From: Perna viridis
Taxonomy: Eukaryota
Assembly: GCA_037379345.1 (NCBI GenBank)
Contig: CM074524.1
Location: 33,427,644 to 33,491,643 of the forward strand
DNA length: 64,000 nucleotides
Reading direction: 5' to 3'
The notes beneath the pieces are model-generated. The model was not told the origin of the DNA. It saw only the letters and a program-made list of their open reading frames with translations, and ran no database searches. Both the position numbers and the translations under genes were made by a program. This document shows positions 14,805-48,510 of the stretch, one piece after another; within the stretch, counting starts at the first letter, position 1; every line of letters starts with the position of its first letter.

Positions 14805-15859
14805 TGTGACATATGTAGGCGATTTGCTTTTCTGTTTATTTTCAATAGAAGGCCATGAATGAATTTCATATACATTTAATTGCTTATGTAAACTTATAGT
14901 AAACAGGTGGAATAAAGGTGGAAATCTTTAGAAAGGGTTCCAATTTTTAGTCCAGTCAGTGCCCCCTTTTTGGAATGTTTTGCTCCGCCATTGGCAGTAA
15001 TGGCACTTGTATAAAAATTGAAAAAGGTTATTAAAGGGCAATATTTTATTAAATTCATTTGATCATGAGAATATCTTAAAAAAAGGAAAAGTTCCATTCA
15101 AATACTCAAAACTGCTTTACGTTTGTATTTATTCATAAAAGTATCTTCCGAACGAACATTAGCTAGAAAATAGTGTAGAGAAATATAACCCCTTTTAACA
15201 TACAGAAAGTGTCTATATATATTCAATTAAGCAAATGAAATGATATCAATTTTTACAATAAAACAGTTTCAATATTAAAACATTTCAAAATCCGGTTGAT
15301 AAATGGCACTTACCTAACACAATAACGTAAAACATTAAGAAATTGATGTGAACAATCATTTCTTCTGAAAATGGAAACATCGATATCAGATCAAATGTAA
15401 TTCTTATTAACTTAGATCACTTACTGAAAAAAATATTAAAAAAAACTTTTGAATCTTTTTGATTCACTTTAATTAATTATAATCTTCATGCTTTACCCAT
15501 CTTTTTGAAAGTATGATTTAATGGCTGTGTCGTTAATATTCGCAAATAAATACCAAGCATCAATACAGAAGGTCTTTCTGAGGTACTAGCGCCCATATAC
15601 ATGACAAAAACGGGCAAGGGGGAAACAGAGATGAGGAAGATCAACAAATAAAAATAGATACAAAATAAAACACAATCACATATACACATATACGCTGGGA
15701 GCGTTCGTTTATCGTGCATTAACTCTTTCAAGTAACCACTATTTCTGTTATGCAACATTAATTTGTCACAATAGCATAAATGTAATAAAATTTGTTGACA
15801 AAAATCCAAGACGGGAAAGGAGTCATGGCCGATGTAGCAAAAACATTGTCTACTAATAT

Positions 15860-17395
15860 GACAACATTGTTTTTGTCTACAAAACGTTTTATATCCAAGG
15901 TTTATTATCAGAGTAGAAAATACTAGCAGTGATAAGACCTGTACTGCTACCACTCTCTCCAAAGAAGAGATTGTGGAAAACCGTCTATGTACTGGATTCC
16001 TAAACTTCACAAGAATCCATACAAACAACGTTTCATAGATGGATCTGCAAAATGTACCACCAAACCTCTTTCAAAAGTTTTAACTTCTATACTCACAACT
16101 GTCAAAGAGGGCCTGCAGTCCTACCACAACACTTGTTACTCCCGTAGTGGTATTAATTCAATGTGCATCCTGAAAAATTCGAAAGATCTTTTAGAAAGAA
16201 TCAGTTAGAGACTATTATCTGAATATAATAGCATTAAAACCTATGATTTTTCAACACTGTATACTTCTATTCCCTACACTCAGTTAAAATCCGACTTAAA
16301 AACATTTTCCATCGTTGTTTTTTCCAAAAAAGATGGTACACCTAGATACAAATATATAGTTCTTGGTAGAGATTCCTCATACTTTGTAAGAAATAATTCC
16401 AAATCATCTTCCAAATATACAGAGGAAGATGCATAAAAAATGCTGGAATTTTTAATCGACAACATATTTGTCCAATGTGGTGGACGTGTTTTTCAACAAA
16501 CGGTCGGCATTCCAATGGGAACAAATTGTGCTCCTTTACTTGCTGACCTATTCCTTCACTCTTATGAGGCTGACTTTATAGCTGATCTGATCAGCAAGAA
16601 AGAATATCGTTTGGCTAGATCCTTTAATCTCAATTTCCGCTATATAGATAAAGTATTATCTTTAAACAATCCTAATTTCGGGGATTTGATACATCGCATC
16701 TACCCAAAAGAACTTGAGATAAAGGATACTACAGACACTGTGAAGTCAGCATCATATCTTGACCTACACTTAGAAATCGATGGTAAAGGAAAACTATTGA
16801 CCAAACTTTACGACAAACGTGATGACTTTTGATTCAGAATTGTCAACTTTCCTTTCATCTGTGGCAACATCCCTTCGGCTCCTGCGTATGGAGTGTTCAT
16901 ATCACAACTCATACGTTATGCCAGAGCTTGCCAAAACTACGCAGACTTTTTGTATCGCGCTAGAACTCTAACAAATAGGCTTCTGGAACATGGTCATGTT
17001 GCTATAAGATTGAAGTCATCACTACAGACGTTTTATGGTCGTCATCATGAACTCGCGGATCATTATGGTGTATCCATCAGCACCATGAAAACTGGTTTAT
17101 TCAACGGGTCATAGTTTTCCTTTCCTCGTTTGTCTACCCCGGACTTGACTTTTTATGAGCAACTCGGCGGGTGTTTCTAGAAAAGCAGAGGACGCTTACC
17201 CTATCGGTGCACCTGGTCCATGCTCCCAATTTTTAGTGGAGTCCGAGTTGCTCATTTACTTTTGTTACTTTGTATGTATGATTTTATGTTACTTTATGTT
17301 CTTTGTTGTGTATGTCTGTTTTCCATGTCTGGTCTTTGTCCCTGGAATACATTCTTTTGATTACCGCTATAACCTTGGTTCCCTTGATTACTCTT
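15860..17395 (+). mobile_element. 5'-truncated Penelope-like retroelement (RT ends without a C-terminal GIY-YIG; likely Naiad-type) with structured 3' UTR
   Basis: ORFs 15987-16208, 16440-16832 and 16893-17114 share one frame. They give MYWIPKLHK..., TYDFSTLYTSIP, GIPMGTNCAPLLADLFL, FRYIDK, SYLDL, LYDKRDDF and YGVFISQLIRYARAC, all PLE RT motifs. The ORF stops at 17112-17114, followed by a ~280-nt UTR repeated elsewhere in the window. Confidence 0.9.
15987..17114 (+). pseudogene. Disabled PLE reverse transcriptase
   Basis: In-frame stops at 16206 (TAG), 16434 (TAA) and 16830 (TGA). Catalytic YIDD reads YIDK (16641-16652). Apparent compensating frameshift near 16290-16325. Confidence 0.88.
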
Positions 17396-17507: not shown

Positions 17508-17760
17508 AAGAAACAAAGGAATCAAGATTCTAGCAGAAATCAAAAGAATGTAATCCAGACATGGAAAAGAGTCACCTACAACAAAGAATATAAAACAACC
17601 AAAATAATATATACAAATTAAAAAAAAGCAAATAAGCAACTGGGACTCCACTTAAAACTGGAAGAACGGACCAGGTGCACCGGTAGGGTAAGCGTCCTCT
17701 GCTATTCTAGAAATAACCGCCCATAAGTTGCTCATTAAAAGTCGAGTCCAGGGTAGAAAC
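17508..17760 (-). mobile_element. Diverged inverted copy of the PLE 3' UTR, tail-to-tail with the main element
   Basis: Reverse complement matches 17130-17395 (GGACCAGGTGCACCGGTAGGGTAAGCGTCCTCTGC on the + strand). Confidence 0.85.
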
Positions 17761-18249: not shown

Positions 18250-20489
18250 CTTGTATTTTCCTATTTTATTAACTTGTTTAGTAGGAGAATTGTTACATTG
18301 TAAAAATTTTATTAGTGTATTGGGTGGTCTAAAACAAGGATAGAGTTGCAATCGAAATTTACCGATCTTTGTATTTTATTAACTGTTTTTATAGATTTTT
18401 TAATCATTTTGCATTGGTAATCAAAACTCTTGAATCACACTGTACTGTTCATTTTTTCGTTATTGCCATAATTTAGGAGATTCAAAATTTCAATATTGCA
18501 TGCTATTCATGTAAATGTGTATGTATTTTTATTATTCTTGTTTGTTCTAAAATAACATTTTGAAAATAAAAGGAAAAACAAAGTTTCAAACCAGATTTAT
18601 TCATCCTCCATTATAGAGCTGTACTACAGCTAGTCCAAAAATCAGAACCATTTCAAGCTTTTACAAATTCCATGTAATATTTTTATTTGTATTTATTTGT
18701 GCTCCGTTCACTTGAAGTAAAAATATTTAATATTTGAATTGTATGTCAACAATATACCAATGACAGTGCACAAAACGATAATTATACCAATCGGTGTTTA
18801 CCTAGGTTAACCAATAACGGTTAGGAAATCAACATTTAATTTCTAGTTTTTAAAGAATATTCATGTCTTGAATGTTTTTAACTCAGGTTCTATAGGGAAA
18901 TTTTTTCTTTGTAAAAATATCGCTATTTTATTACTTTCTGTGTATTGTTTGTTAATGGCCAGTTTAATAATTTGTTGTAAGTTTTGTTTGTCCAGAATTA
19001 GATTTCGGTTGTAAAAATGTCACCGTTTATCAATTTGAAAGCACTACCAGATACATATCAGTCTGATTTCTCCTGTTGTACTACCCTTAAAATCAATTTA
19101 TTTCCATTTTTTACTCTATTTTTACTATATTTTGTGTAAACTGAGCGAAATTTGTCTTAAAGCATACATTATTTTTTGTCAAGGTCAAAGGACAATACAT
19201 CATTGATAAAAGTATGTACAGCGTCATTGCAAATGCGCAAGCAACATTTGTTGTAACATCAAATTCACCTGAATAATAAGAATTTCAGGGTATCAGATCC
19301 ATAAATGGATAATAAAATTTACACACATGTACAGACGTTTTCATCATTCACACCGATTTTGTTTTGGCAGTTGAACTGAGCTTTTTCTAGATGTGTCGCC
19401 TTAGCCTGGCAGTCGATGCCAGTATGATTATTTATTCCTGCAACATATTTTCAAAACCTGCCAGTGTAATACAGTGTTTACTACGTTATGTCAATTTGAC
19501 AGCAACCATTGCAATATTTGGTTCATTTTCCATATCAAATGAGTATCTTACATTTGTATATCTAAAATGCGTTTGAATAATATATCTCCTACCTACACAC
19601 ATCACGAGAAAAAAATAACACTAAATTACATTGCTATGGCCTTAGTCATACGACCCTAGTTATTTTGCCCCTTTACAAATTGCGGTTCATGACCTTAATA
19701 TTTCAGAAGGAGTACCAAGATATATTTTGCCAATAGAGATCAATGAATCTACATAGATAAGAATCTGTATACTCTGGACTAGTAATAGCAGTCGTATTTA
19801 ATTCAACGTTTAAACCTCTTAACAATAAAAGGTTAATTCAAATGTTGATTTTTCGGAAGAAAGTGAATATAGAATAAATAAATTTTTGGATTGAAAGGTG
19901 GTTTTCATACATTTATTTATATGAAAAATTATGTTATTAACCTAGGAATCATTTAGAATTTCTTTAGAATCCCAAGGCCGATTTTACTTTGTAAAATGAT
20001 TTGCCTTTTTTATGTCGAGTCAAATCGTTTGATTTTGAAAGATTTTGGGATAAAGTGGTGTGCCTTTTATTAAATGTTACAAACAAGAGCCATTAAACAG
20101 TTTGAAAAGTAATAAAAGCAGTTTTAGGGTCACCTCATTAAAGTTTTAACTTTTATCCCTCATTATATTACAGCTCCTTGAGAGTCGAATTGGTTTTTAA
20201 GTTCACTTCTTTGTTAAGAGCATTTTTCTTGTCCTAGTAGTGACCTTATCGTATGGACAATCCGATTCCTCGACCATAACCTTTAAAGAACTCACAGTCT
20301 ACGACTTCATTTATTGTAATTTTAATGCTGCAAATATGAGACATCAAGTAGAGCCTGACCTCGATTGCCATGACAATTCAGTTGTTTAGATCTTCAGTGA
20401 TATCATTCACTGACACACTCTACCTTTGTTGTCAAAGAATGACTTGAAAGGGACTTTTATAATTAAGTAATTAATTGATGTTTGGATGA

Positions 20490-20852
20490 TTGATGTCATC
20501 CCCACAGAAGTTATATGGTCGTCCTCGTGAACTCGTGGATCGTTATGGTGTTTACATGTGCACAATTTGAGCCAATTTGTTCACCGTGTCATAGTTTTCC
20601 TTATCTCTCTCGTCTATCCGGGATGTGACATTTAATTTGCAACTCGGTGGATGTTCCAAGAAAACCAGTGGACGAAAACATAACCGGTGCACCTAGCACA
20701 TACTTCGAGTTTTTAGTTATGTCTAGATTGTTCATTTGCTTTTGTTTCTTCGTATCTTGTATTTTGCTCATTTCATGTTCTGTGTTGTATGTTATCCCTG
20801 TCTATCTGTTGTTTGTTATCCCTGTCTATCATTGGAATATTTTATTTTGATT
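20490..20852 (+). mobile_element. Diverged PLE 3' fragment
   Basis: TATGGTCGTCCTCGTGAACTCGTGGATCGTTATGGTG...TCATAGTTTTCC...CCGGTGCACCT aligns to 17030-17360. Confidence 0.8.
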
Positions 20853-24626: not shown

Positions 24627-24718
24627 ATCAAGTAGGTAAATTTTACCTTCGGTGATATCCATAAATTAGGAAATCAAGTAGGTAAATTTGACCTTCGGTG
24701 ATATCCATAAATTAGGAA
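24627..24718. repeat. 46-bp tandem duplication
   Basis: ATCAAGTAGGTAAATTT(T/G)ACCTTCGGTGATATCCATAAATTAGGAA x2. Confidence 0.9.
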
Positions 24719-25872: not shown

Positions 25873-26217
25873 AAAGAGTAATCAAGGAAACTAAGGTTAT
25901 AGTGGTAATCAAAGAGTAATCAAGGAAACTAAGGTTATAGCGGTAATCAAAGAGTAATCAAGGAAACTAAGGTTGTAACGGTAATCAAAGAGTAATCAAG
26001 GAAACCAAGTTTATAGCGGTAATCAAAGAGTAATCAAGGAAACTAAGGTTGTAACGGTAATCAAAGAGTAATCAAGGAAACCAAGTTTATAGCGGTAATC
26101 AAAGAGTAATCAAGGAAACTAAGGTTATAGCGGTAATCAAAAGAATGTAATCCAAGGACAAAGACCAGACATGGAAAACAACAAACACAACAAAGAACAT
26201 TAAGTAACTTAAATCAT
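25873..26217 (-). mobile_element. PLE 3' UTR end whose terminal unit is amplified into 7 x 38-bp tandem repeats (25873-26138)
   Basis: Unit AAAGAGTAATCAAGGAAACTAAGGTTATAGCGGTAATC starts at 25873, 25911, 25949, 25987, 26025, 26063 and 26101, then continues into AAAAGAATGTAATCCAAGGACAAAGACCAGACATGG (PLE UTR). Confidence 0.92.
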
Positions 26218-26934
26218 ATTATCTTTTTATATATGATAACATAATGATAATAATACCATTGTTACATATGAAAAAAAATAGATTTAGTATAGGCATATAT
26301 AAGTATACTTCAGGTTGTATGATGTTTCTTAAACTCTTAAATGTATATTTCGGTCGATTTGATTGGTATGTGGTAATAAACATGAACATATATGGTTATA
26401 TATGCTCCTCAAACATAAATAACTGAGAAAAATGTTTCTAAACGCCAAATTTTGCCTCTTTTAACGTCGACTGCATGTGTTTACTTTCAATATATTTTGT
26501 GTATAGTCACGTCCATTCAACACAAAAAATCAAATTGCATAAATTTAAAACTTTAAGGGTTGTGTAATTTGTGTAATTTGTGCATAATATTTAAACATCC
26601 AAAGTATTGTCAAAAATAGCTCTATTTAGTGTTTGTAACCATTTTACTATACTTTTTCTGCCGAAAAATAAGCTTCATTCAGTTAAAAAAATGAACATAT
26701 CTTGATAAGGGTTCTACTACTTTCACACGTAAACCGATCTTTTTGTATATCCTTGTTCGTTTTCTCCAGGCTCTATCTCAATACTCACTACTGTATCAGG
26801 TCTCTACAATATCTTCTGTATTGTTTCAGCAATCACATCTGTTTGGTTTCTTTTTATTGGGGGGTATGTTTTTTTATTTTGTTTTGTTTTTTTGTTCTAT
26901 GTACATATTGCAGTGTTGTGCTTGTTCTACCTTG

Positions 26935-27112
26935 TCAATGTTCCCAGTTTTATGTGGAATCTGTGTTTGTTTGTTTTTTCTTTGTACTTGCTATTTTGGT
27001 TATTGCATGTTCTTTGGTGTGTGTGTGTTTGTCTGTCTGTCTGTTTTCCCTGTCTAGTATTTATCCCAGGAATATATTCGTTTGATCGAATCCGGCTTCC
27101 CTAGATCACTAT
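26935..27112 (+). mobile_element. Degenerate PLE 3' UTR
   Basis: TGTTCCCAGTTTTATGTGGA...TCTGTTTTCCCTGTCTAG...CCAGGAATATATTCGTTTGAT...TTCCCTAGATCACT resembles 17220-17395. Confidence 0.6.
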
Positions 27113-27326: not shown

Positions 27327-27428
27327 AACTCGGGACAAGTATTACCAACAGGAAGAAGAACTCGGGACAAGTATTACCAACAGGTAGAAAAACTCAGGAC
27401 AAGTATTGCCAACCAACAGGAAGAAGAA
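27327..27428. repeat. 32-bp tandem repeat x3
   Basis: AACTCGGGACAAGTATTACCAACAGGAAGAAG at 27327, 27359 and 27391. Confidence 0.88.
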
Positions 27429-27751
27429 CGAATGTCATGAATAATCTCTAACTTGAAACGTACCAAAACATCAAATCAATGCATGATATTTGAGTTATTT
27501 ATTTACACCTGTTATCATCTGTCCAGTAGTAGATATAGAAATGGTCACTGTGAAATATTTAAACTTGAATGACACTAATAAATCAATAAGCCCTAGAAAA
27601 TGTTCGACAGTTAAGTTGTTCTTCAAAAAGTGCTTACTTAACATTAGTAGTGGCATGATTAAAGTTTATTTTATTACCTTCGAAAACGTATGTCTTCCTT
27701 AAATCCCAAAAAAAACAATATAATGATGTATTTTAAACAAATGGGCTTCCT

Positions 27752-27997
27752 AGTTTTTAGTGGAGTCCGAGTTCCTCATTTACTTTTGTTACTTTGTATG
27801 TATGATTTTAGTTACTTTATTTTCTTTGTTGTGTATGTCTGTTTTCCATGTCTGGTCTTTGTCCCTGGATTACATTCTTTTGATTACCGCTATAACCTTG
27901 GTTCCCTCGATTACTCTTTTGATTACCTCTATAACCTTGGTTACTTTGATTACTCTTTTGATTACCGCTTTAACATTGGTTCCCTTGATTACTCTTT
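27752..27997 (+). mobile_element. PLE 3' UTR with terminal unit in 3 x 39-bp tandem copies (27878-27997)
   Basis: Near-identical to 17230-17395; TTTTGATTACCGCTATAACCTTGGTTCCCTTGATTACTC occurs three times with substitutions. Confidence 0.92.
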
Positions 27998-31532: not shown

Positions 31533-31935
31533 GAAGAGTAATCAAGGAAATCAAGTTTATAGCGATAATCAAAAGAACGTAATCTAGAGACAAAGACCAG
31601 ACATGGAAAACAGACATACACAACAAAAAACATAAAGTTACTAAAATCACACATACAAAGTAACAAAAGCAAATGATTAACTCGGACCACTAAAAACTGG
31701 GAGCATGGACCATTTGCACCAATAGGTTAAGAGTCCTCTGCTTTTCTAGAAACACCCGCCGAGTTGCTCATGAAAAGTCAAGTCCTGGGTAGACGAAAGA
31801 GGAAAGAAAAACCATGTCACGTTGAACAGATTAGTTTTATGGCGCACATGGATACATCATAACGATCCACGAGTTCATGATGACGACCATAAAATTTTTG
31901 TAGTGATGATTTCAATCTTGTAGCAACATAACCCT
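31533..31935 (-). mobile_element. PLE 3' fragment (RT C-terminus plus complete UTR)
   Basis: Reverse complement aligns with ~16990-17395, with a single terminal unit. Confidence 0.9.
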
Positions 31936-33122
31936 ACTCCAGAAACCATAAAATTACTGGTTTAAGTACCGTTGCACAATAGCGGATAGGTTTATTTTCC
32001 ACCAAAACGTGCATCTTGATATTTTTGTTTACGATCTTTGATAGAGTGAGTTTTATTTTACTTAGATACCCACCATGGTATCTTATGAGATCGGGCTGGA
32101 ATATTTTCGAGAAAAAATGTAATTCCAAATGTTTGGGAATTCCTTTATTACTGATCCATTTAAAAAATTAATGATATTTTCCTCATTACAAGGCATATTT
32201 TCAAATAAAAATATTGATTTCGATTGCTGCTGAATTATAAATAACAATTTTGCACTTGAGCGAAAAAAATTGCTTACCTGACATCAAATCCCTGGCCTCC
32301 CCTGATGATGTAAATGGTCGGTGCCTTACTTCTGGGAAAACAATTGGCATATACGGCTTTCAATATGTGAAAGTGAAAACTTTGCATTTCATGCAAAAGG
32401 AAAGTTTTTACGCCTACTACAATCACCACCCCATTACTATTATATTAAAGGATGACTGTTAAGCAATACAGCTGTAATCAATATCATGTTTAAATAAAGA
32501 ACCTCTTTATATATGAAAAAACAATTCGAACAAATGCAGCGGAAATTAAGACATTAAAAACTCAATTAAACAATGTTTTATAAAAAGGGGAAATTGACCC
32601 TTAAATTACAACAAGTACAAAAAGCGCAAGTGTGACACAGATCTAATTACGACAATACATTTCCATATATCTATTGAGTGTTGTTAGAAGAAAAGATTGT
32701 TATTGTTCAGTCGTTCTATAGAATATAGGTCTATCTACGTAATTGTCAAATATTCTATATGGATCAATTAGGCGAAAGTAAAGACGAGGTAATGGCTGTA
32801 TTGTTACTACTCAATTATCTATCCAAAACATATCTGTTTGTTATAGGATACCAAAACAACATTGATCTTTCAAAATGTGTTGAATAATTTATTTGAATGC
32901 ATAGGGTATATAGAAATATGAAGGTATTGGAAAAATTGATATTTTCTCTTTACTTCTGTTCAATGATCCATTGTTATCACAGCTTAATGAATGGGTTTGT
33001 CTGGATATATAACTGCTCCAATGTTTTGTCTGTGATTTTCCTGCTTAGTCTAGCTCTTTGTGTGTGTGTGTGTAAATGATATAAGTATATTAAATGAACT
33101 TCAGCATTTTATTTCTCGTACT

Positions 33123-36563: not shown

Positions 36564-37634
36564 TGATTCTCTAAAATAGACTCTTTTATAGTACAAATGT
36601 AAGGAAAATTAATCGACTTAAGGTTATTTGACCTGCATTATTTCGGATCATTTATTGTAACTAGCGATACATTTATTTATTTGTTTGTTTATGCAAACTG
36701 TATTTTTAAAGGATGAACGGTGCCAGCTTTGTTAGAATATGCTACTTAACTTTTCTGTAATGGTTTAGCCAGAATACAATTATTCTTGTTTTCTCAGGTT
36801 ATGACAAATGCACTCATGCCACATTGTTTCTATGCATGTACCCTTGTGCATGTACCATGTCATACGATGATTCAGACTGATCCTTTATTGTGTATTGAAT
36901 ATGAACACGTGCACATTTACAAAATATAGCTTATATGTGGATCTACAATTTCCATTAAGTTTTTATAAAGTTTTGCTTTGATGTGAAATTCATTTAAAAA
37001 TATTCAAAAGATAGAGTGGCTTAAACATTCACTCAGAAAGTAATGATACATTTTTGGAAGAGACGTAAAATACATACATCACTTATCTGAATATACACAG
37101 TGTCACAATATCTACATGTTTAAACGATTTATTTGATTAAGCCCAATTTTCAAAGTCTTGATAAATGGTAAGCGGTTCCGTTATCAAATATACCTATACT
37201 TAGAGCTATTCTAATCCTATCAATCAATTTTAGAATTGGACCTTTTAACGAATCGACCATTTATTGATTTTAACCAATGTTTGGCATTGATCTAATTTTC
37301 GGACACCCAGGTCACAAGTACGGGGCTGTAATATTTAAAGTAGCCATGCTACTGGTCAATCCTTGTAGTCAAAGCAAATACAAGTCCATTGAGCTGAAAT
37401 TGCAAAACATAAATTTTGAAACCCAAAGAAAACACAACATAATACCCAAACAAATAGAAAAGTGTTACTTACTTTAATTGTTCGTACATTAATTAACTTC
37501 ATGTACTGTTACATCAGTTCGTTAGTACTTTAGAATTATATATAGTTTGACATTCCAGGTTACACTTTATACATGCAAATACTACTGATTTAAAATTATT
37601 TACACTACTGTGGATAAATTCATGCTATCTGATC

Positions 37635-37775
37635 AGTTTTCATGATGCAGATACATCGTCGTAACGATCCACGAGTTCACGATGACGACCATGAAACATT
37701 TGTAGTGATGACTTCAATCTTGTAGCAACATAACCCTGTTCCAGAAGCCTATTTGTTAGAGTTCTAGCGCGATAG
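37635..37775 (-). mobile_element. PLE RT C-terminal fragment
   Basis: AACGATCCACGAGTTCACGATGACGACCAT...TTCTAGCGCGATA is the reverse complement of ~16950-17070. Confidence 0.85.
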
Positions 37776-40749
37776 AATAGAACCATTGCTACGAAGTATA
37801 TCATCTCAGTCATCTTTGAGTCATAGAAAAAAAAACAATATATGACATTATAGTTTTATTGGTCATTGTTTTTACCTGATTGTTATTTGTATAGGAAATG
37901 ACATATGATAGGTTATCCATATTATCTTCTTTACAATTTCATTTGTAGCTCTTAAATGCATGAAACTGACTTCGCCTATGGTTGCCAAACACTAATGGTA
38001 AACATGTACTAGCGTTATCTTATACATGTACATGTATCTTTTTATTATTAAATATGTATGAAGATTTGCTTAGCAGTATTCACTGTCTCTCAGTCTGTTT
38101 CTTTTGGAAACTGACACGTATATTATTGCGTTAAGCATATATAAAGTTACCACATCATAATTGTTCACTTCTTATAGGGTCAGATTAATAACAATCTGCA
38201 TTTATTTAAAATTGAAATTTTGCCATACTCAATAAACTGCTTGAATAGATCCTATGGCATATGATTAACCCGGGACAGTATTATATATATATCATAATGC
38301 ATTTAATGAAGTAGTATAGTATTTAAAATGGGCTAGTTTTTGGACATCCATTCTAAAGTGAAGGAATCATGGCATACCTTATTTTTTTGTAATACATAAG
38401 TGTATTTCCCTCGCACATGTTCCATTTATCCAGAATGAAGCATCTCTTTTTCTATATAAATAAATCGTTTGAATTATTTCTGTTTTTTTTTATTCATTTT
38501 ATTTATTATTTGATATTTTTGACAATTACATAACTGCATATGTGTTACAGAAGATTACTATAGACTTTACATGTATGTTTGATCGTACGTATTGGCATTC
38601 CAATGGATCTACGAAGTCTATGTTTTATAAATTTTCCTAATGAGGCGATGCTAGCATATGCAAGCTTTAATATTAATCTTACTACCGTTCGTTTCTGCCG
38701 TGAAAACTAGGAAACTAATAAAACATGGAAGGTCGCCAAACCAACAGTTGAAATGTTGCTTGCTTTAAATTACTCACTAAACATGGAAGAAATCCCTTCA
38801 CATTTTACAGCATTGTGTCATGTTTTGTTCAAGGTCCTGTTGGGAAATCACAACAAAAAAATGTCTTGTGCGAATAAATAGATATTGTGCTCTTGTATAC
38901 TAACATTAAATTATGATATGGCACAAATTTGGCGTAAATTATCACTATTAAACACTGAACAACATCAAAAAGATACCCGTTAATATCTTCTTTACTTTCA
39001 TATAAGATGAAAGACTCTTGACGTGTAAGATTTTCAAATTTATCTAAATTATACCTTAAAACATCATTGAAATTACAGTGTATTTCGTAGACAATATTTT
39101 CCTACAAACCAAAAATGCACTTGTTGCATGGAAGGACATGCATCTACTCAGTCTTAGTAACATTTTATTTAGCTTATCATGATTCAGAAATGGTCTTATC
39201 AAAAATACAGTAAAATGTTCAATACATGTACCAACGAAGTTATACATGTAAACGTCATTTCCGGTTGTACATGTAAGTAGCAAAACTCTCTATTTTTTTT
39301 TTCATTCATGTTTTAGTTACACATAATTGTTTATAATTGTTTTTGTTTACATATGTACCGTTTTGTTTATCTATTATGACATATGACTAGCCCTCGAACA
39401 CAATATGTGTAGATTAACCGTTAGTCTTTAAGACGATTAACCGGGTGCAGATTATCCCCGTAGATTAATTGTAACATGGCTTATTCGTTTCATTCATAAC
39501 CAAGTGTTACGTGCCCAAACTCTGACAATGTCCTGAAGAACATCCTACATGTACACGTATGAAGCGGATTGTCCGCCTACTGTATTTGAGGATACAGGTG
39601 TAGACCTGGTGAAAGGCATTGGTGCTTGCCCTGAAAACAGAGGAGTGGGAGAAAAAACATTAAATGTTGTTGGCAGGTTAATCTGACTTTTTCTGATATA
39701 CAAATACATGTACATTGTAGTTGGGTCCATGTATAATTATATTTATCAAGGAGATAAGCAATGAAAATTCCTGTAGATCATTGTGTTATTTTGTTTCTGA
39801 ACGGTACCTATCATTCAACAATGTTAGTTGTAAACCAAAATTAAGGTAAACAAAAACATAAACAGTAAACATAAACAACACAAAACTTAGAATTTTAAAA
39901 CGTTTTTTGTAATTCTTAAGTATTTTAAGAAAATATATTTTATACCAAGTTGTTGCCAACAAGTTTTATCAAACGTGAAACATTTCTCTTACTGTAACAT
40001 ATAAACAACGAACTGCATATCTCATTTGTCATCTTTTAGGAAAACAAACGTGTTTACAAATGAATTTGTATTCTACATACTTGCACTCGCTAGCCTCAAT
40101 TTACATGAAAGTTTCTTTAATTTTGGGATATTGTAATTGAAAACGTGATAAAAATGTACAAACGACGCGTTGTAATGTAAACAAAGTTCGATTTTAACTA
40201 AGTAGAGACGGTTACAAAGGTTTAGTGTTAAACTCATTACATGAATGAATATTTTAGTACAAACAGCTTTTTTTTCTTTTCCCCATATCTATAACGTACT
40301 AACACATATAACACATTACTCATATATACTGGACCTACGTTTTTGAGTATGTTACTATCGATTGCAGGAGATTGAAAATATTCAAAACTGCGATGTTCGT
40401 CCTTTAATTTCGTTAATTTTCGGAAATAAGTTGTTATTCCTATTGTATCGTATTTCTGTCCTTAAAAATATTAAATTTGAGATTCCTATCAGTTTATTTA
40501 TGCTATCAGTATAGTCAAAATTAATTTTGGGTTGGAAATGGTTCTTAATTATTGAAAATAGAATTAATATTTGAAACTTTATTTTAGGATATTTGTTGGT
40601 AATATATCAAATACAGGAAATCATTAAAATTGCATTACTTAGGAGTTGAAACATATAGAAAATACGTCTTTCGAGTCTAAGAAGATTACCATACATTGAA
40701 GTAAGATCGGGTTTCAAACTTGTTACCATCGTCCTTTCGCTATACCCAA

Positions 40750-41020: not shown

Positions 41021-41714
41021 GGATCATGTCTCATTCTCTGGTTGGGTATAGTAGTGTACCAGGCGTGGATATACTTGATTAACTTCTGGATCATGTCTCA
41101 TTCTCTGGTTGGGTATACATGTAATAGTGTACCAGGCGTGGTGACACTTGATTAACCTCTAAATCATGTCTCATTCTCTGCTTGGGTATAGTAGTGTACC
41201 AGGCGTGGATATACTTGATTAACTTCTGGATCATGTCACATTCTCTGCTTGGGTATAGTAGTGTACCAGGCGTGGTGACACTTGATTAACTTCTGGATCA
41301 TGTCTCATTCTCTGCTTGGGTATAGTAGTGTACCAGGTGTGGTGACACTTGATTAACTTCTGGATCATGTCTCATTCTCTGGTTAGGTATACATGTAATA
41401 GTGTACCAGGCGTGGTGACACTTGATTAACTTCTGGATCATGTCTCATTCTCTGGTTGGGTATACATGTAATAGTGTAACAGGCGTGGTGACACTTGATT
41501 AACCTCTAAATCATGTCTCATTCTCTGGTTGGGTATAGTAGTGTACCAGGCGTGGTGACACTTGATTAACTTCTGGATCATGTCTCATTCTCTGGTTAGG
41601 TATACATGTAATAGTGTACCAGGCGTGGTGACACTTGATTAACTTCTGGATCATGTCTCATTCTCTGCTTGGGTATAGTAGTGTACCAGGCGTGGTGATA
41701 CTTGGTTAAATTCT
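41021..41714. repeat. Minisatellite, 10 units of 67 or 73 bp
   Basis: Units start at 41021, 41088, 41161, 41228, 41295, 41362, 41435, 41508, 41575 and 41648. The 73-bp units carry TATACATGTAATAG where the 67-bp units have TATAGTAG. Confidence 0.95.
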
Positions 41715-44700
41715 GAATTTGTTATAAAGATCAGCGGATTAAATGTGTACCTAATGTAACAAAATAAAACAGAAAAACACAGTTAACCACTTCATCAGAA
41801 CGCCTGGCAAATTATTAGTACGCTCTGTGTAAGTGTAATTACAGATAAAATGCAGAACTTTATCCATTACAAATAGATAAAGACACCTTCAAAATTCATA
41901 TAATTGCTACATGTAACCAATAATTTTTCAACACCCTATAAACAAATAAAATTTAATGGGATGTTTCTCACAAAAGCAGACTGAACAACTAGACATGTTG
42001 CTGTATGCACAGTAATTATCTTTTATTGATAAATAGTGATGATTATATAATATTACTGTGTATGTAATGGCTATTGAATTTCTGATTGTTATGGTTGCGA
42101 TATTAAACAAGTACTTGTAATGTATAATAAATTGTGCATCTAAGTTCTCAACGAGCGTACTATAGTCATAAAATAATAAATACCTTGGATTTTGTATTGA
42201 CTTCATTTTTTTATTTAACTTTACAATCATTTACGCGATAAAGCTTTCATCTTTTATGGAACAGATTCGGTTTCCCCTGGCCAAATACAAGTCGCATATT
42301 GTAGAGATGGCCTTTATGCCACTTTTGATCATTAAAATCTAACACGCCTCCCGAAGACTCATAGCTTGTAGTAGTAATATTATCTACTAAAAACTACATT
42401 TTGTATTTATTCAGGACAAGTTTTTTATTATGTTGTATTTTAAATGAATTGGCTTTTGTTTTCATCTATACAAAGTTGGTTTGTCTGTGTCCCTACATTA
42501 CATGCGATAAGTCAATAGCACTAAAATGGTTGAAACTGAAATTTTTTGGAACAATGTTTGTTATCATTTTCACATTAATTGAAGCTAACTCTCTATTTTC
42601 ATCATTGGACTTGGAAAATCAAATCACAAAATTGTGTGGGGATGCTTTAGTATAGATATATATTACAGCTGTTATACTCTTGTGATTTGAATGACTAATT
42701 CATTAGTTTACGAAATATTTCGAAACAAAGATAACTATAAAAATTGAGTAAACTAATTTAATTGTATATGCAACTCGTTCTTGCAGAGTTCGTTCTAAAA
42801 CTTCACGCCAAATGATGCATTTCGTTAATTTCTTTTGTTCTATGTCAGTTTGACCCTGTACCAGTTTAACGCTGGGTCTAGTATATTAACAAAACAAAAG
42901 ACAGTATAAAGCGACTTAAAGAAGAACAAAGATATATACCCAGTATACTTGATTGCTACTGGTCCGTTTGATCGCCTCTATTGGCGTTTAATGATCAGGA
43001 AATGGCGTGACATACTGTTCTATTAGACTTTATTAAACCTTTGTCTTGTCTTTAGAAAAATTCCTCGTGTCAGCCCTAGATTTAAGACAGCAAAGTGTAA
43101 TATATAATGATAAAGCAACGACAAACGAAATTCTGTTCTTTTAAATTTCGTTTCGCTCCGTGTTTTGGTTTTTGTGTCCTCTCGTGTTTTTTTATCTTGT
43201 ACTTTTCTATCTTAGCTTTGATGTTTTGCTTAACTGCATATTTGACCAGCCTGACTATTCGTTATATTCTGTACGTTTTTTTTAATTGTGTGTTGTGTGT
43301 GCGTCCGTCTGTTCCTTATAGTGTGCATTGTGGTCTGTTTTCTAATGTTTCATGTTCATGTCATTTTAAATATGACTTGGTAATTTTCATTGTGTCAGGT
43401 TGACTTAATTGTCTTCACTTCTAAACTTCTGATTCAGAAGCGCATTTTGAAATTTTGAAAGGTTTATCAAATTTTAACGCTACACCTATCCAAATACTTT
43501 GTAGTCATTAAATAGTGATGTGACCAATTTTTTGAATAAAATAGTATGGTTCAGATTTTATGTTACATTTTGTTTCCATCATTCCAATATTATAATTCAT
43601 TTATTAGTTCTTTTAGAGTATATTCCATATCCTTTTGTTTTATAGTCAGTTTCTATTCGTCTCTCATTAATCATGTTTTTTAGAGAATCATTTTAAGAAA
43701 ATGTGTACAAAGGCAACGCAACAGAATATACAATTCTGGTAAGGTGTGTTACAAACAAGGCTAAAAAAAAAGTTCTATGCATTTTATTTCAATTTTATTG
43801 TAACAATAGTTTCTTGGACGGATGTAAACGAGCATAAAATTACAACAAAACTGATTCTATCACAAAATTCCAGATATTTTTTTAACAAAGCACACTCTAG
43901 ATCAATGATTTTTAAACGAAAAACATGACTTCAATTTTGGAAAGAATTTTTTCAACCATGATTACAGAAAGGCTTAAATTTGAAAGAAACCGGGCTTACT
44001 AATTTACTCCGTATGCTTATATCAATAGCAATCTGTTCATATTTTATAAAATGACTAGATACTTATCATTTATTTTGGACGTTTACGTTCCGTGTCATGG
44101 ATACATATCAAAGTAGCAATTTTAGAAGAAAGATTTCACATCTAAATAAATAATGATGGAAGTCGTCTACGCCATTCTGGCTCACTAAATGCAGAGCTAT
44201 AATAACTTGTTTGAGAAACAAGCTAGGTTTTGATTTTGTTTTTGATTATATCTAAAACAATATATCTACATTACAACACAAACATTGCAAACTTAACAAA
44301 GGTTTACTCGATTTGAAAGATCGAGTGCACCCATGAAATCACAGATCAGAAAAATAGCACCATAGGGAAGTGACAATATGTCTTAGTACGAATGAACATG
44401 GCGTTTCAGAAACATTTACAATGATAAAAAGTAAAAAAGCATAGAATTTCGAAACTTTCGTTCTTTCTCGAATCTACGTTTTCGTTACGTACACGCTGTC
44501 AGGGTTCCGAAAAGAAGACAGAAATGAGAACCAGATGAAAAATAAAAACCAACAAACTATACAATTTGAACTACATTCATAAAAAAAGGAAAATTTTCTG
44601 ATGGAACCCGACCATTTCACTTGGCACATTTGGAAATCATCAGCAGACGTCATCTGCTTTAAACATAAAAATAGTGACCGGAAGTGGTGCTCTTGAAGTG

Positions 44701-47303: not shown

Positions 47304-48341
47304 TTATGACTCTGAATATACTATATGAATCGCCGTATCAGTTTGTACGGGAGTTTCCGCGTAGTCTATTAAGGGATCCGGTGGTGCTTCTGGTTCTTCG
47401 TTTTCGACACCAATAAGCCATTCGATAATCATTTGATCTTTACCAGATTCGGAGTCAGTGTCATCATCTTCGAATTCCTCATTTTCATTTTTGTTTCTGA
47501 CACAATTGTTCAACTGCACCGTTGATGAATATCGCCTCATTCCGTTAATGTTAGATGAATTGTATTTTCCTTGAGTCAAATTTTGTGTTTTCTCTATAGA
47601 AATGAGTCTACTCTTGTTTACTAACTTATTGTCTGAACCATTTCTTCTCATGAGGGGTTTTGGTTTATTTCCCATAAAATTCTCTATTGGTTGTATTTTG
47701 GGTTCACTTGCACAATGGCAGAACTTATTTTTTGTCTGCCGAGTGTTGTTATTCCCGCTCGAGTTAGATTTATCCCTAGATGGCAAACGATTAGTCCTGT
47801 ATCCATTCATGTTACTTCTAGGTGTTTGAACTGAAACACCATTTTTATTTTTAATAGAATCCAATTTCAAAGCTTCAGGTGAAGCTGTTATTGTTTGTTC
47901 CGGAGGTGTAATCCAAGTTTTAGAACGACAATGAACATTTGCGGAATGGTTCCGATGACTTGATGACGAAGACGTAGCACTATGTGGAGATCTCCGGATA
48001 TGTAGTCCTTTCTGAGATGAATCACTATTATTGCTCATTTGATTGCTTCTAGTTTTGTAATATTCATTTCCGTTTCCCATGCTTTGGTTACTTGTAAGTA
48101 TCCTTGAATCTAGAATAGGTGGAAGCTCAGGCGCGCTCATTCTTCGAGAACTATAAACTGATATAGGACATCCCTCATGAATTGTCCCTATGTCGTATGA
48201 AATAGCACTAGATCTTCGTAATGATGGGTTAGCAGATCGATAATGTCTACCTACGAGACCTTTTTCAAATCGCTGTTGACTGTTCAGTGTTTTATTTGAA
48301 ACTGATTGTACAGGACTAGAAAATCTTTTATCAGACTTCAT
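47304..48341 (-). CDS. Uncharacterised 345-aa Ser/Asn/Arg-rich, probably intrinsically disordered protein with acidic, conserved-looking C-terminal module
   Basis: By far the longest ORF in the window, in AT-rich DNA where chance ORFs are short. RRxS motifs (RRSS, RRMS, RRYS). C-terminus DDDTDSESGKDQMIIEWLIGVE...PPDPLID...QTDTAIHIVY. The frame stays open ~21 codons upstream of the ATG, so an upstream exon cannot be excluded. Confidence 0.8.
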   Translation of the reverse strand: MKSDKRFSSPVQSVSNKTLNSQQRFEKGLVGRHYRSANPSLRRSSAISYDIGTIHEGCPISVYSSRRMSAPELPPILDSRILTSNQSMGNGNEYYKTRSNQMSNNSDSSQKGLHIRRSPHSATSSSSSHRNHSANVHCRSKTWITPPEQTITASPEALKLDSIKNKNGVSVQTPRSNMNGYRTNRLPSRDKSNSSGNNNTRQTKNKFCHCASEPKIQPIENFMGNKPKPLMRRNGSDNKLVNKSRLISIEKTQNLTQGKYNSSNINGMRRYSSTVQLNNCVRNKNENEEFEDDDTDSESGKDQMIIEWLIGVENEEPEAPPDPLIDYAETPVQTDTAIHIVYSES

Positions 48342-48510
48342 TGCGCATGCGTTAATTTGTCTAGTTAAATGTCCCTCTATTGTAATGATATATAAAAGAG
48401 TTCTTTACCGAAATTTGCCCTTCGAATCGATTTATTGAAATCCGTTTAAATAGTTAAATGTTCAAATGTATTTTAGAATGTCCATGAAGTCCACACATGA
48501 AAACCTGCTT

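Follow-up and report, generated by a model that had tools for sequence, protein, structure and literature searches.

The window, a 64,000-nt stretch of Perna viridis DNA (GCA_037379345.1, contig CM074524.1, positions 33,427,644-33,491,643, forward strand), carries two short tandem arrays of the terminal unit of a Penelope-like element (PLE), together with single-unit ends of the same element and a number of older fragments (Table 1). TRF delimited array A at 25873-26141 (period 38, 7.1 copies, 92% matches) and array B at 27862-27997 (period 39, 3.4 copies, 87% matches), and the exact units bear out the seven and three copies in opposite orientation that a sequence-only reading of this DNA had described. 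The two single-unit ends that it had listed are likewise present, one of them diverged. The 3' flanks of both arrays start with TCA, that of array A at position 25873. Arrays A and B are two separate insertions, since their 5' truncations (about 118 versus about 171 nt from the end) and their flanks differ; the earlier conclusion therefore holds on this evidence, and not on the difference in junction length that had been cited for it. Within array A, units 2 and 4 and units 3 and 5 (in element order) have variants in common, confirming the higher-order dimer, and one variant is present in all seven units. Array A therefore grew mostly at the DNA level, and because one variant is common to all seven units its seeding cannot be dated. 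The variants of array B are all private to single units, as in a star-like phylogeny. The 38-nt step is not an assembly artefact, since raw RNA reads (run X22) contain the joint that goes back 38 nt, with 236 and 119 reads for the reference's two element ends; passive transcription of genomic copies accounts for these reads, which are thus uninformative on mechanism.

Table 1. Features of the window, in positions of the 64,000-nt stretch
Feature	Position	Strand	Description
Array A	25874-26139	-	Seven terminal 38-nt units, 38-nt register (exact units)
Array A, residual 5'-truncated Naiad 3' UTR	26140-26218	-	About 118 nt of element to first unit end
Array B	27881-27996	+	Three terminal units, minority 39-nt register
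Array B, exact units	27881-27918, 27920-27957, 27959-27996	+	One additional T between units
Array B, residual 5'-truncated Naiad 3' UTR	27748-27880	+	About 171 nt of element to first unit end
Single-unit Naiad copy	15953-17395	+	Broken RT frames and 3' UTR; terminal unit 17358-17395
Extra fragments of the 15953-17395 (+) copy	15768-15982
Older 5'-truncated single-unit Naiad copy	31534-31947	-	Diverged, 87% identical; terminal unit 31534-31571 (-)
Older or related Naiad 3' fragments	2938-3045, 7340-7646, 11640-11982, 17511-17757, 20488-20788, 26929-27086, 37632-37777		67-90% identity to the array-bearing family
Open frame	47304-48404	-	366 aa, serine-rich, acidic end, without Pfam match; probably a host gene or exon
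Other, unrelated tandem repeats	41021-41715 (67/140 bp), 60161-60634 (31 bp), 27327-27429 (32 bp), 24627-24718 (46 bp)

Units 2 and 4 of array A (26025-26112) and the single copy 5.4 kb away (unit 31534-31571) share two uncommon variants, with frequencies of 7/373 and 12/373, and no such variant is common to the two bodies; either chance or local gene conversion may lie behind this.

The element with the repeated tail fits a Naiad-type Penelope-like retrotransposon. A GIY-YIG domain lies N-terminal to the reverse transcriptase (RT): PF01541 is matched in the upstream frame at aa 255-343 (E 1.9e-4, 22.1 bits, just missing the cut-off of 22.6), and the RT at the end of the ORF gives a weak RVT_1 match (E 0.045). 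The CxC linker motif PDCSC and a DKA motif (PADKAQ, in place of DKG) were found in copy L149 and in further copies, and a Cx(n)CxxC finger (CTISKCGIKNCKTC) lies upstream of GIY-YIG in copies L195, L206 and L212. The unit is 3,409 bp long, and both 5' truncation and partial tandems are present. The N-terminal GIY-YIG, the CxC and DKA motifs, the 5' truncation and the partial tandems are all as in the Naiads described in the available text of PMC8557442, as are the 3.4-kb unit (body 3.4-4.4 kb in that work) and the absence of an Rfam ribozyme match; for the hammerhead ribozyme, no match at E≤1 was obtained at two full-length loci, a result that a minimal ribozyme could escape. Unlike the Naiads in that text, the present family does not favour (TA)n targets, a bias that is frequent and not universal in Naiads (PMC8557442): its flanks are led by TCA, CCA, TGA, TTA and ACA, and its target is (T/C)TT|NVA. 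As to target-site duplications, only a minority of 117 copies had overlaps, and these were short (3-8 nt). Exact genome matches to a 22-nt UTR motif number 17,682, corresponding after a rough correction to about 34,000 copies.

In full-length copies, a copy of the 3' end (pLTR) precedes the body and is joined to it at CTCTT|TCACAC. The Naiad clade is known for such partial tandems and for a 30-40-bp tail (Craig et al. 2021, PMC8557442, in its available text), and we considered whether the 38-nt unit is this canonical optional tail. This was rejected: the unit is found in pLTRs as well as at 3' ends, and none of 30 pLTR-body junction copies stops 30-40 nt into the body. Furthermore, no class of copies ending at the 38 site was visible, and solo 38-nt units were not in excess. 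Compared with the Naiads of the same text, the unit thus lies inside the normal 3' end, is repeated and not optional, and comes in fixed lengths.

Several loci show other arrangements of the element. At C3:46027000-46084900 (L459-L464), full-length 3,409-bp units, at least 16 in number, form a head-to-tail array, with neighbouring units 99.8-99.9% identical and the ORF in pieces, and contigs C5 and C6 hold smaller tandem repeats with the same junction. As an intact source the C3 array was rejected, because the ORF is fragmented in the copies read. At L423:6481-6519, the terminal unit of a young full-length copy is of the older subfamily type, reflecting either nested insertion or a change from one RNA to another. 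Two unrelated minus-strand copies (L098:1522 and L108:1522) both stop 22 nt short of the normal end, a possible minor start site. Immediately after the 73-type tail at L240:1513-1680 come short pieces of the element end and an older copy, all of them inverted.

Repeated tails occur throughout the family, in about 3.5% (about 1 in 30) of the copies in this genome. A pattern for the first unit (32 fixed bases) had 9,214 genome matches, and one that also required a second unit behind it in register 38 (33 fixed bases) had 335; the rate of about 3.5% was obtained after removal of chance flanks, with chance or partial flanks making up 3 of the 91 records fetched from the 38-type list. These junctions are not due to chance, since the junction motif had 1,454 exact genome matches and its reversed control none. 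Among the 91 records (first 90 loci fetched), 40 contained two units, 15 three, 15 four, six five and 11 six to nineteen, while four were parsed as one. The longest arrays in this sample had 17 and 19 units, and a single large satellite was therefore rejected as the source of the junction count.

A second class of tails goes back 73 nt, with 89 junctions at 71 loci (matched pattern), or about 0.8%. Among the junctions listed for the 61-91 window, 96 of 100 were in register 73; the 40-60 window held nine junctions and the 86-146 window 44, with 110 the most frequent. Upstream of the element end, T4 tracts lie at 41-38, 77-74, 113-110 and 135-132, and the 38, 73 and 110 junctions join the exact 3' end of the element to the first three of these. 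The sites are ranked, 38 being far commoner than 73, and 73 commoner than 110; no clear junction was found at the fourth tract (132) in the 86-146 window. Three A's are left at the 38 and 110 junctions and two at the 73 junction. Twelve of 72 73-type loci also have a 38 junction, compared with 3.6% expected (P 6e-5), and in 11 of these 12 it lies at or near the end made first, which suggests two restarts in some events. The rate of multi-unit tails appears to differ between contigs: contig C1 has 10 of the 335, against 34 predicted from its length, and contig C12 is rich in 73-type loci.

The sequence-only reading had proposed that microhomology bracketing the unit (GATTACATTCTT/GATTACTCTT) acts like the alignment region of a telomerase template. 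Such a bracket predicts a register of 39 or 41. Of the first 100 junctions listed for the 37-42 window, 97 were 38, two were 39 and one was other, so the proposed alignment region does not set the register; over the genome, the 39 register accounts for 21 junctions at 13 loci. The longest exact brackets are 8 nt for a period of 27, 6 nt for 41, 4 nt for 39 and 3 nt for 38, where the microhomology amounts to only 2-3 nt. Since periods 27, 41 and 39 are better bracketed and 38 nevertheless dominates, microhomology does not select the unit. The comparison with internal segments that had been suggested points the same way: searched with shorter and more permissive patterns, the better-bracketed 27-nt period gave 27 junctions (at 19 loci) and the 41-nt period 14, far fewer than the 335 first 38-junctions and the 1,454 junction matches of the 37-42-nt class, nearly all of which are 38. 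Nor is there a single fixed template boundary, the stops lying at 38, 73, 110 and rarer sites. RNA structure was rejected as a boundary marker, no significant folding being found at the unit boundaries (z 0.76 and -0.33).

The time at which the units arose was read from their variants. Pattern-fixed positions, CpG and three subfamily markers were left out of the counts, as were copies cut by locus ends and arrays with a unit more than 5/19 bases off. If duplication occurs at a random later time, about one third of the variants in a two-unit array should be shared. Two-unit 38-type arrays (n=39) had 5 shared and 38 private variants (P 1e-3), and two-unit 73-type arrays (n=30) had 5 shared and 95 private variants (P 6e-12). 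Private variants were divided 20 versus 18 between first and terminal unit in the 38-type and 41 versus 54 in the 73-type, the latter difference not being significant. Because the units of two-unit tails have hardly any mutations in common and do not differ in age, the tail was doubled at insertion, in agreement with the seeding step of the sequence-only reading. Three-unit arrays had 6 subset-shared variants, where 1.5 are expected under a star model and 6.3 if the third unit is added later, as the DNA-level expansion in the same reading would have it; arrays of 4-6 units fall between the two models, and subset sharing is seen in 73-type arrays too. Doubling of the tail at insertion, with much of the further growth occurring later at the DNA level, is thus supported. 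Of the repeat addition that had been proposed, doubling at insertion is supported. Processive addition of many repeats finds no clear support: the three-unit arrays reject a model in which all units were born together, the 4-6-unit arrays are intermediate and the mixed 73+38 arrays suggest two restarts in some events.

Flank sequences define the target of the family. Among 119 single copies, the flank was enriched for TCA (10x), CCA (6.0x) and TGA (3.1x), with ACA and GCA likewise enriched, while TTG (0.3x), TCC (0) and TAG (0/119) were depleted and TTG, TCC, TAG and GAT were at or near zero. Empty paralogous sites, about a dozen examined by eye, were mostly (T/C)TT|NVA. The modal genomic target is the sequence at the pLTR-body junction of full-length copies, as pairing of the primer with an RNA spanning this junction would predict. 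TGA flanks were found in 15/99 multi-unit versus 2/122 single-copy loci and, with another single-copy set, in 16/102 versus 9/119, two of these nine being misclassified tails; six single copies chosen by a junction-like flank had been dropped before the counts. TGA flanks were more frequent among long copies (>615 nt; L422, L424, L431 etc.), where they numbered 6/31, including two misclassified tails, than in 59 short copies (<400 nt), where TGA was outside the six commonest flanks. A flank equal to the unit start was rejected as a general driver, there being no CCA excess in 73-type loci (5/59 versus 9/119-122).

The Naiad RT is a close relative of telomerase. We consider it probable, if not strongly so, that this RT comes to a halt in a U4 tract and primes anew at its own start site, usually once. 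It would prime at CUCUU|UCA, the sequence of the head-to-tail junction and of the modal genomic target, and would then copy up to a U4 tract; there the dA:rU hybrid, being weak, would fray. The end of the cDNA, AA or AAA and the bases next to it, would pair again with UUU(CA) at the start site, on the same RNA or on a sister RNA, and synthesis would restart. This would amount to one telomerase- or DRT2-like realignment step, with a probability that drops with distance, and third and further units would mostly be products of slippage or unequal exchange acting later on the ready-made 38-nt repeats. That the template runs on into UCACAC we infer from the genomic tandems and by analogy with a different PLE clade; the pairing with UUUCA would presumably involve 2-5 nt. 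Site use favours an RT restart, since it follows T4 tracts and distance and not target quality: the 110 site (TT|TAG, a flank seen in 0/119) is used without visible nesting, the 47 site (ATT|ACA, no T tract) was seen once and in that case nested, and 38 is commoner than 73, although 73 is the better target. Less easily reconciled with this reading are the unequal number of A's at the junctions, the lack of a clear junction at the fourth T4 tract, the intermediate position of the 4-6-unit arrays, the excess of TGA flanks at multi-unit loci and the deficit on contig C1.

Less likely than not is an extended version in which a repeat-addition cycle persists in the Naiad RT in rudimentary form. Staying tethered at its internal start site, the RT would stall in U4 and realign on UUUCA several times per insertion, making star-like 3-7-unit tails and the mixed 73+38 tails. 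If true, a mobile-element counterpart of telomerase translocation would be on record at several hundred loci of a single genome.

The main rival to an RT restart is that the endonuclease drives the doubling within the same event, the bound RNP nicking its own new DNA at TTT|TGA (38) or TTTT|CCA (73) and priming again, so that each junction would be an ordinary target-primed start. Restart junctions look like ordinary priming junctions and are thus predicted by RT restart and by re-nicking. Re-nicking needs no extra assumptions for the registers, because nested insertions share register and target preference: visible nested insertions show that the 73 site is a genomic target with an identical register (6 of 7 true nested 73 insertions read register 73 among junctions of the 61-91 window), and the use of 38 over 39 and of 73 over 74 tracks the flank enrichment and the (T/C)TT|NVA of the empty sites. 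A PLE endonuclease is also known to cut its own pLTR region (PMC11167929, in its available text). A pure endonuclease-target rule, however, fits the registers and not the site ranking; it was rejected as a rule and kept as a rival, and its early support had been inflated because the flank set contained multi-unit loci. The 47 site was hit once by a nested insertion and gave no seamless case, 110 is used in spite of its TAG, and CCA, the better target, is used about five times less than TGA. Moreover, the upstream part of the first cDNA would have to vanish at 94 of 95 38-type loci. We therefore regard re-nicking as unlikely, less so than the explanations that follow.

Alternatively, repeated tails could be inherited from source copies that already had them, with priming at any unit end. 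One case of a three-unit pLTR followed by the 5' body (L348/L429) is consistent with this, and priming at an inner unit end favours TGA flanks, which are in excess. On the other hand, none of 30 pLTR-body junctions was multi-unit, which rules out a majority and not a few percent of such sources, and inspection by eye revealed no unit variants that were position-specific and recurred from locus to locus. The 5' ends of multi-unit loci are many and unrelated, and these loci are no older than single copies. They occur in three main UTR haplotypes (subfamilies) in proportions near those of single copies, in a survey where the oldest subfamily, which breaks the search motif, is under-sampled. Descent of all multi-unit tails from a single ancestral copy, a possibility raised with the original proposal, is thus not what is found, and multi-unit tails are present among young insertions. 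Inheritance would in any case still require a de novo step, and we judge it quite improbable.

Later, independent insertions into older copies, in which annealing to the homologous old body would conceal the 5' junction, are real for a minority of loci. An old-body remnant directly upstream, ending at the junction site, was found at 7/67 73-type, 1/95 38-type and 0/10 39-type loci, compared with 0 and 1 of 106 single copies in the controls, and three 73-type loci have an old-subfamily terminal unit beneath a young copy. The single junction at 47, that at 101 (two duplicate loci) and one at 123 are nested as well. Independent insertion into older copies explains about 10% of 73-type and about 1% of 38-type loci. 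The nested rates, about 0.08% (73-type) and 0.04% (38-type) per copy, match a rough estimate for random targeting, which the seamless junctions exceed about 140-fold (38) and 11-fold (73). By this rough estimate, later insertions would need a boost of about 140-fold over random targeting at 38, and they predict older terminal units where the private variants were 20 versus 18. As a general account they are highly improbable. Least probable of all is duplication at the DNA level alone, whether after insertion, by replication slippage or unequal exchange, or through slippage in second-strand fill-in: dimers and subset-shared variants in longer arrays, the 27- and 41-nt units, duplications that include flank and a rate that apparently differs between contigs speak for it, but the dominant 38 has a 2-3-nt bracket where 27 (8 nt), 41 (6 nt exact) and 39 (4 nt) are better served, two-unit arrays are without shared mutations, and DNA-level duplication accounts for growth and not for seeding.

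Formally, the repeated tail is a partial tandem whose downstream copy is just 38 or 73 nt, and it is best classed among PLE partial tandems, as a variant. For the question of how PLE tandem ends form, PMC8557442 calls for an in vitro system; repeated terminal units are unmentioned in its available text, and its family files may bear on novelty. A literature search that stopped short of supplements and most subscription papers found no description of repeated terminal units in Naiads. In the Poseidon PLE of Anolis (PAc), RT initiates internally at two sites, as shown in tandem read-through RNA (Frangieh et al. 2024, PMC11167929). According to the available text of that study, PAc resembles the present family in its precise end without poly(A), which fits initiation inside a tandem read-through RNA, and in an endonuclease that can cut the element's own sequence. 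The PAc tail, however, extends from one start site to the other, and a copy either has it or lacks it, whereas here there is one dominant start and the segment is repeated; and PAc initiates without homology to the cut DNA, whereas in the present family the modal target and the junction sequence agree.

Tandem repeats at the priming end are also known from LINE and SINE tails (TAA in the I element, TGTAA in UnaL2), where they are ascribed to template slippage in target-primed reverse transcription (PMC3747384, in its available text). Those units are 3-5 nt long and the template itself is repeated, whereas here the units are 38-110 nt, the template is unique and the pairing is 2-3 nt. RT template jumps build repeats in DRT2 (PMC12039810, likewise in its available text). 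As in telomerase and DRT2, the RT would go from an internal stop back to a fixed start with re-pairing of a few bases; unlike in those systems, there is no dedicated non-coding template, there are several stops and no single boundary, and the step occurs in about 3.5% of insertions, mostly for one round and with no sign of function. Non-LTR retrozymes, which derive from PLE ends, are similar in forming locally amplified tandem arrays from PLE terminal sequence and different in that here no hammerhead was found and the arrays are still joined to the element body (bioRxiv 10.64898/2026.07.22.740005, in its available text).

We conclude that the tail is real, family-wide and linked to insertion, and telomerase-like only in a limited and unproven sense. 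The family provides a natural jump map with a fixed start, three ranked stops and rates of about 3.5% and 0.8%, for which the nested insertions serve as a background control. It also records the seeding of minisatellites by a retrotransposon, with one doubling at insertion and DNA-level growth to up to 19 units. With the U tracts, the UUUCA and an endonuclease-dead enzyme as handles, the idea that repeat addition predates telomerase becomes experimentally approachable.
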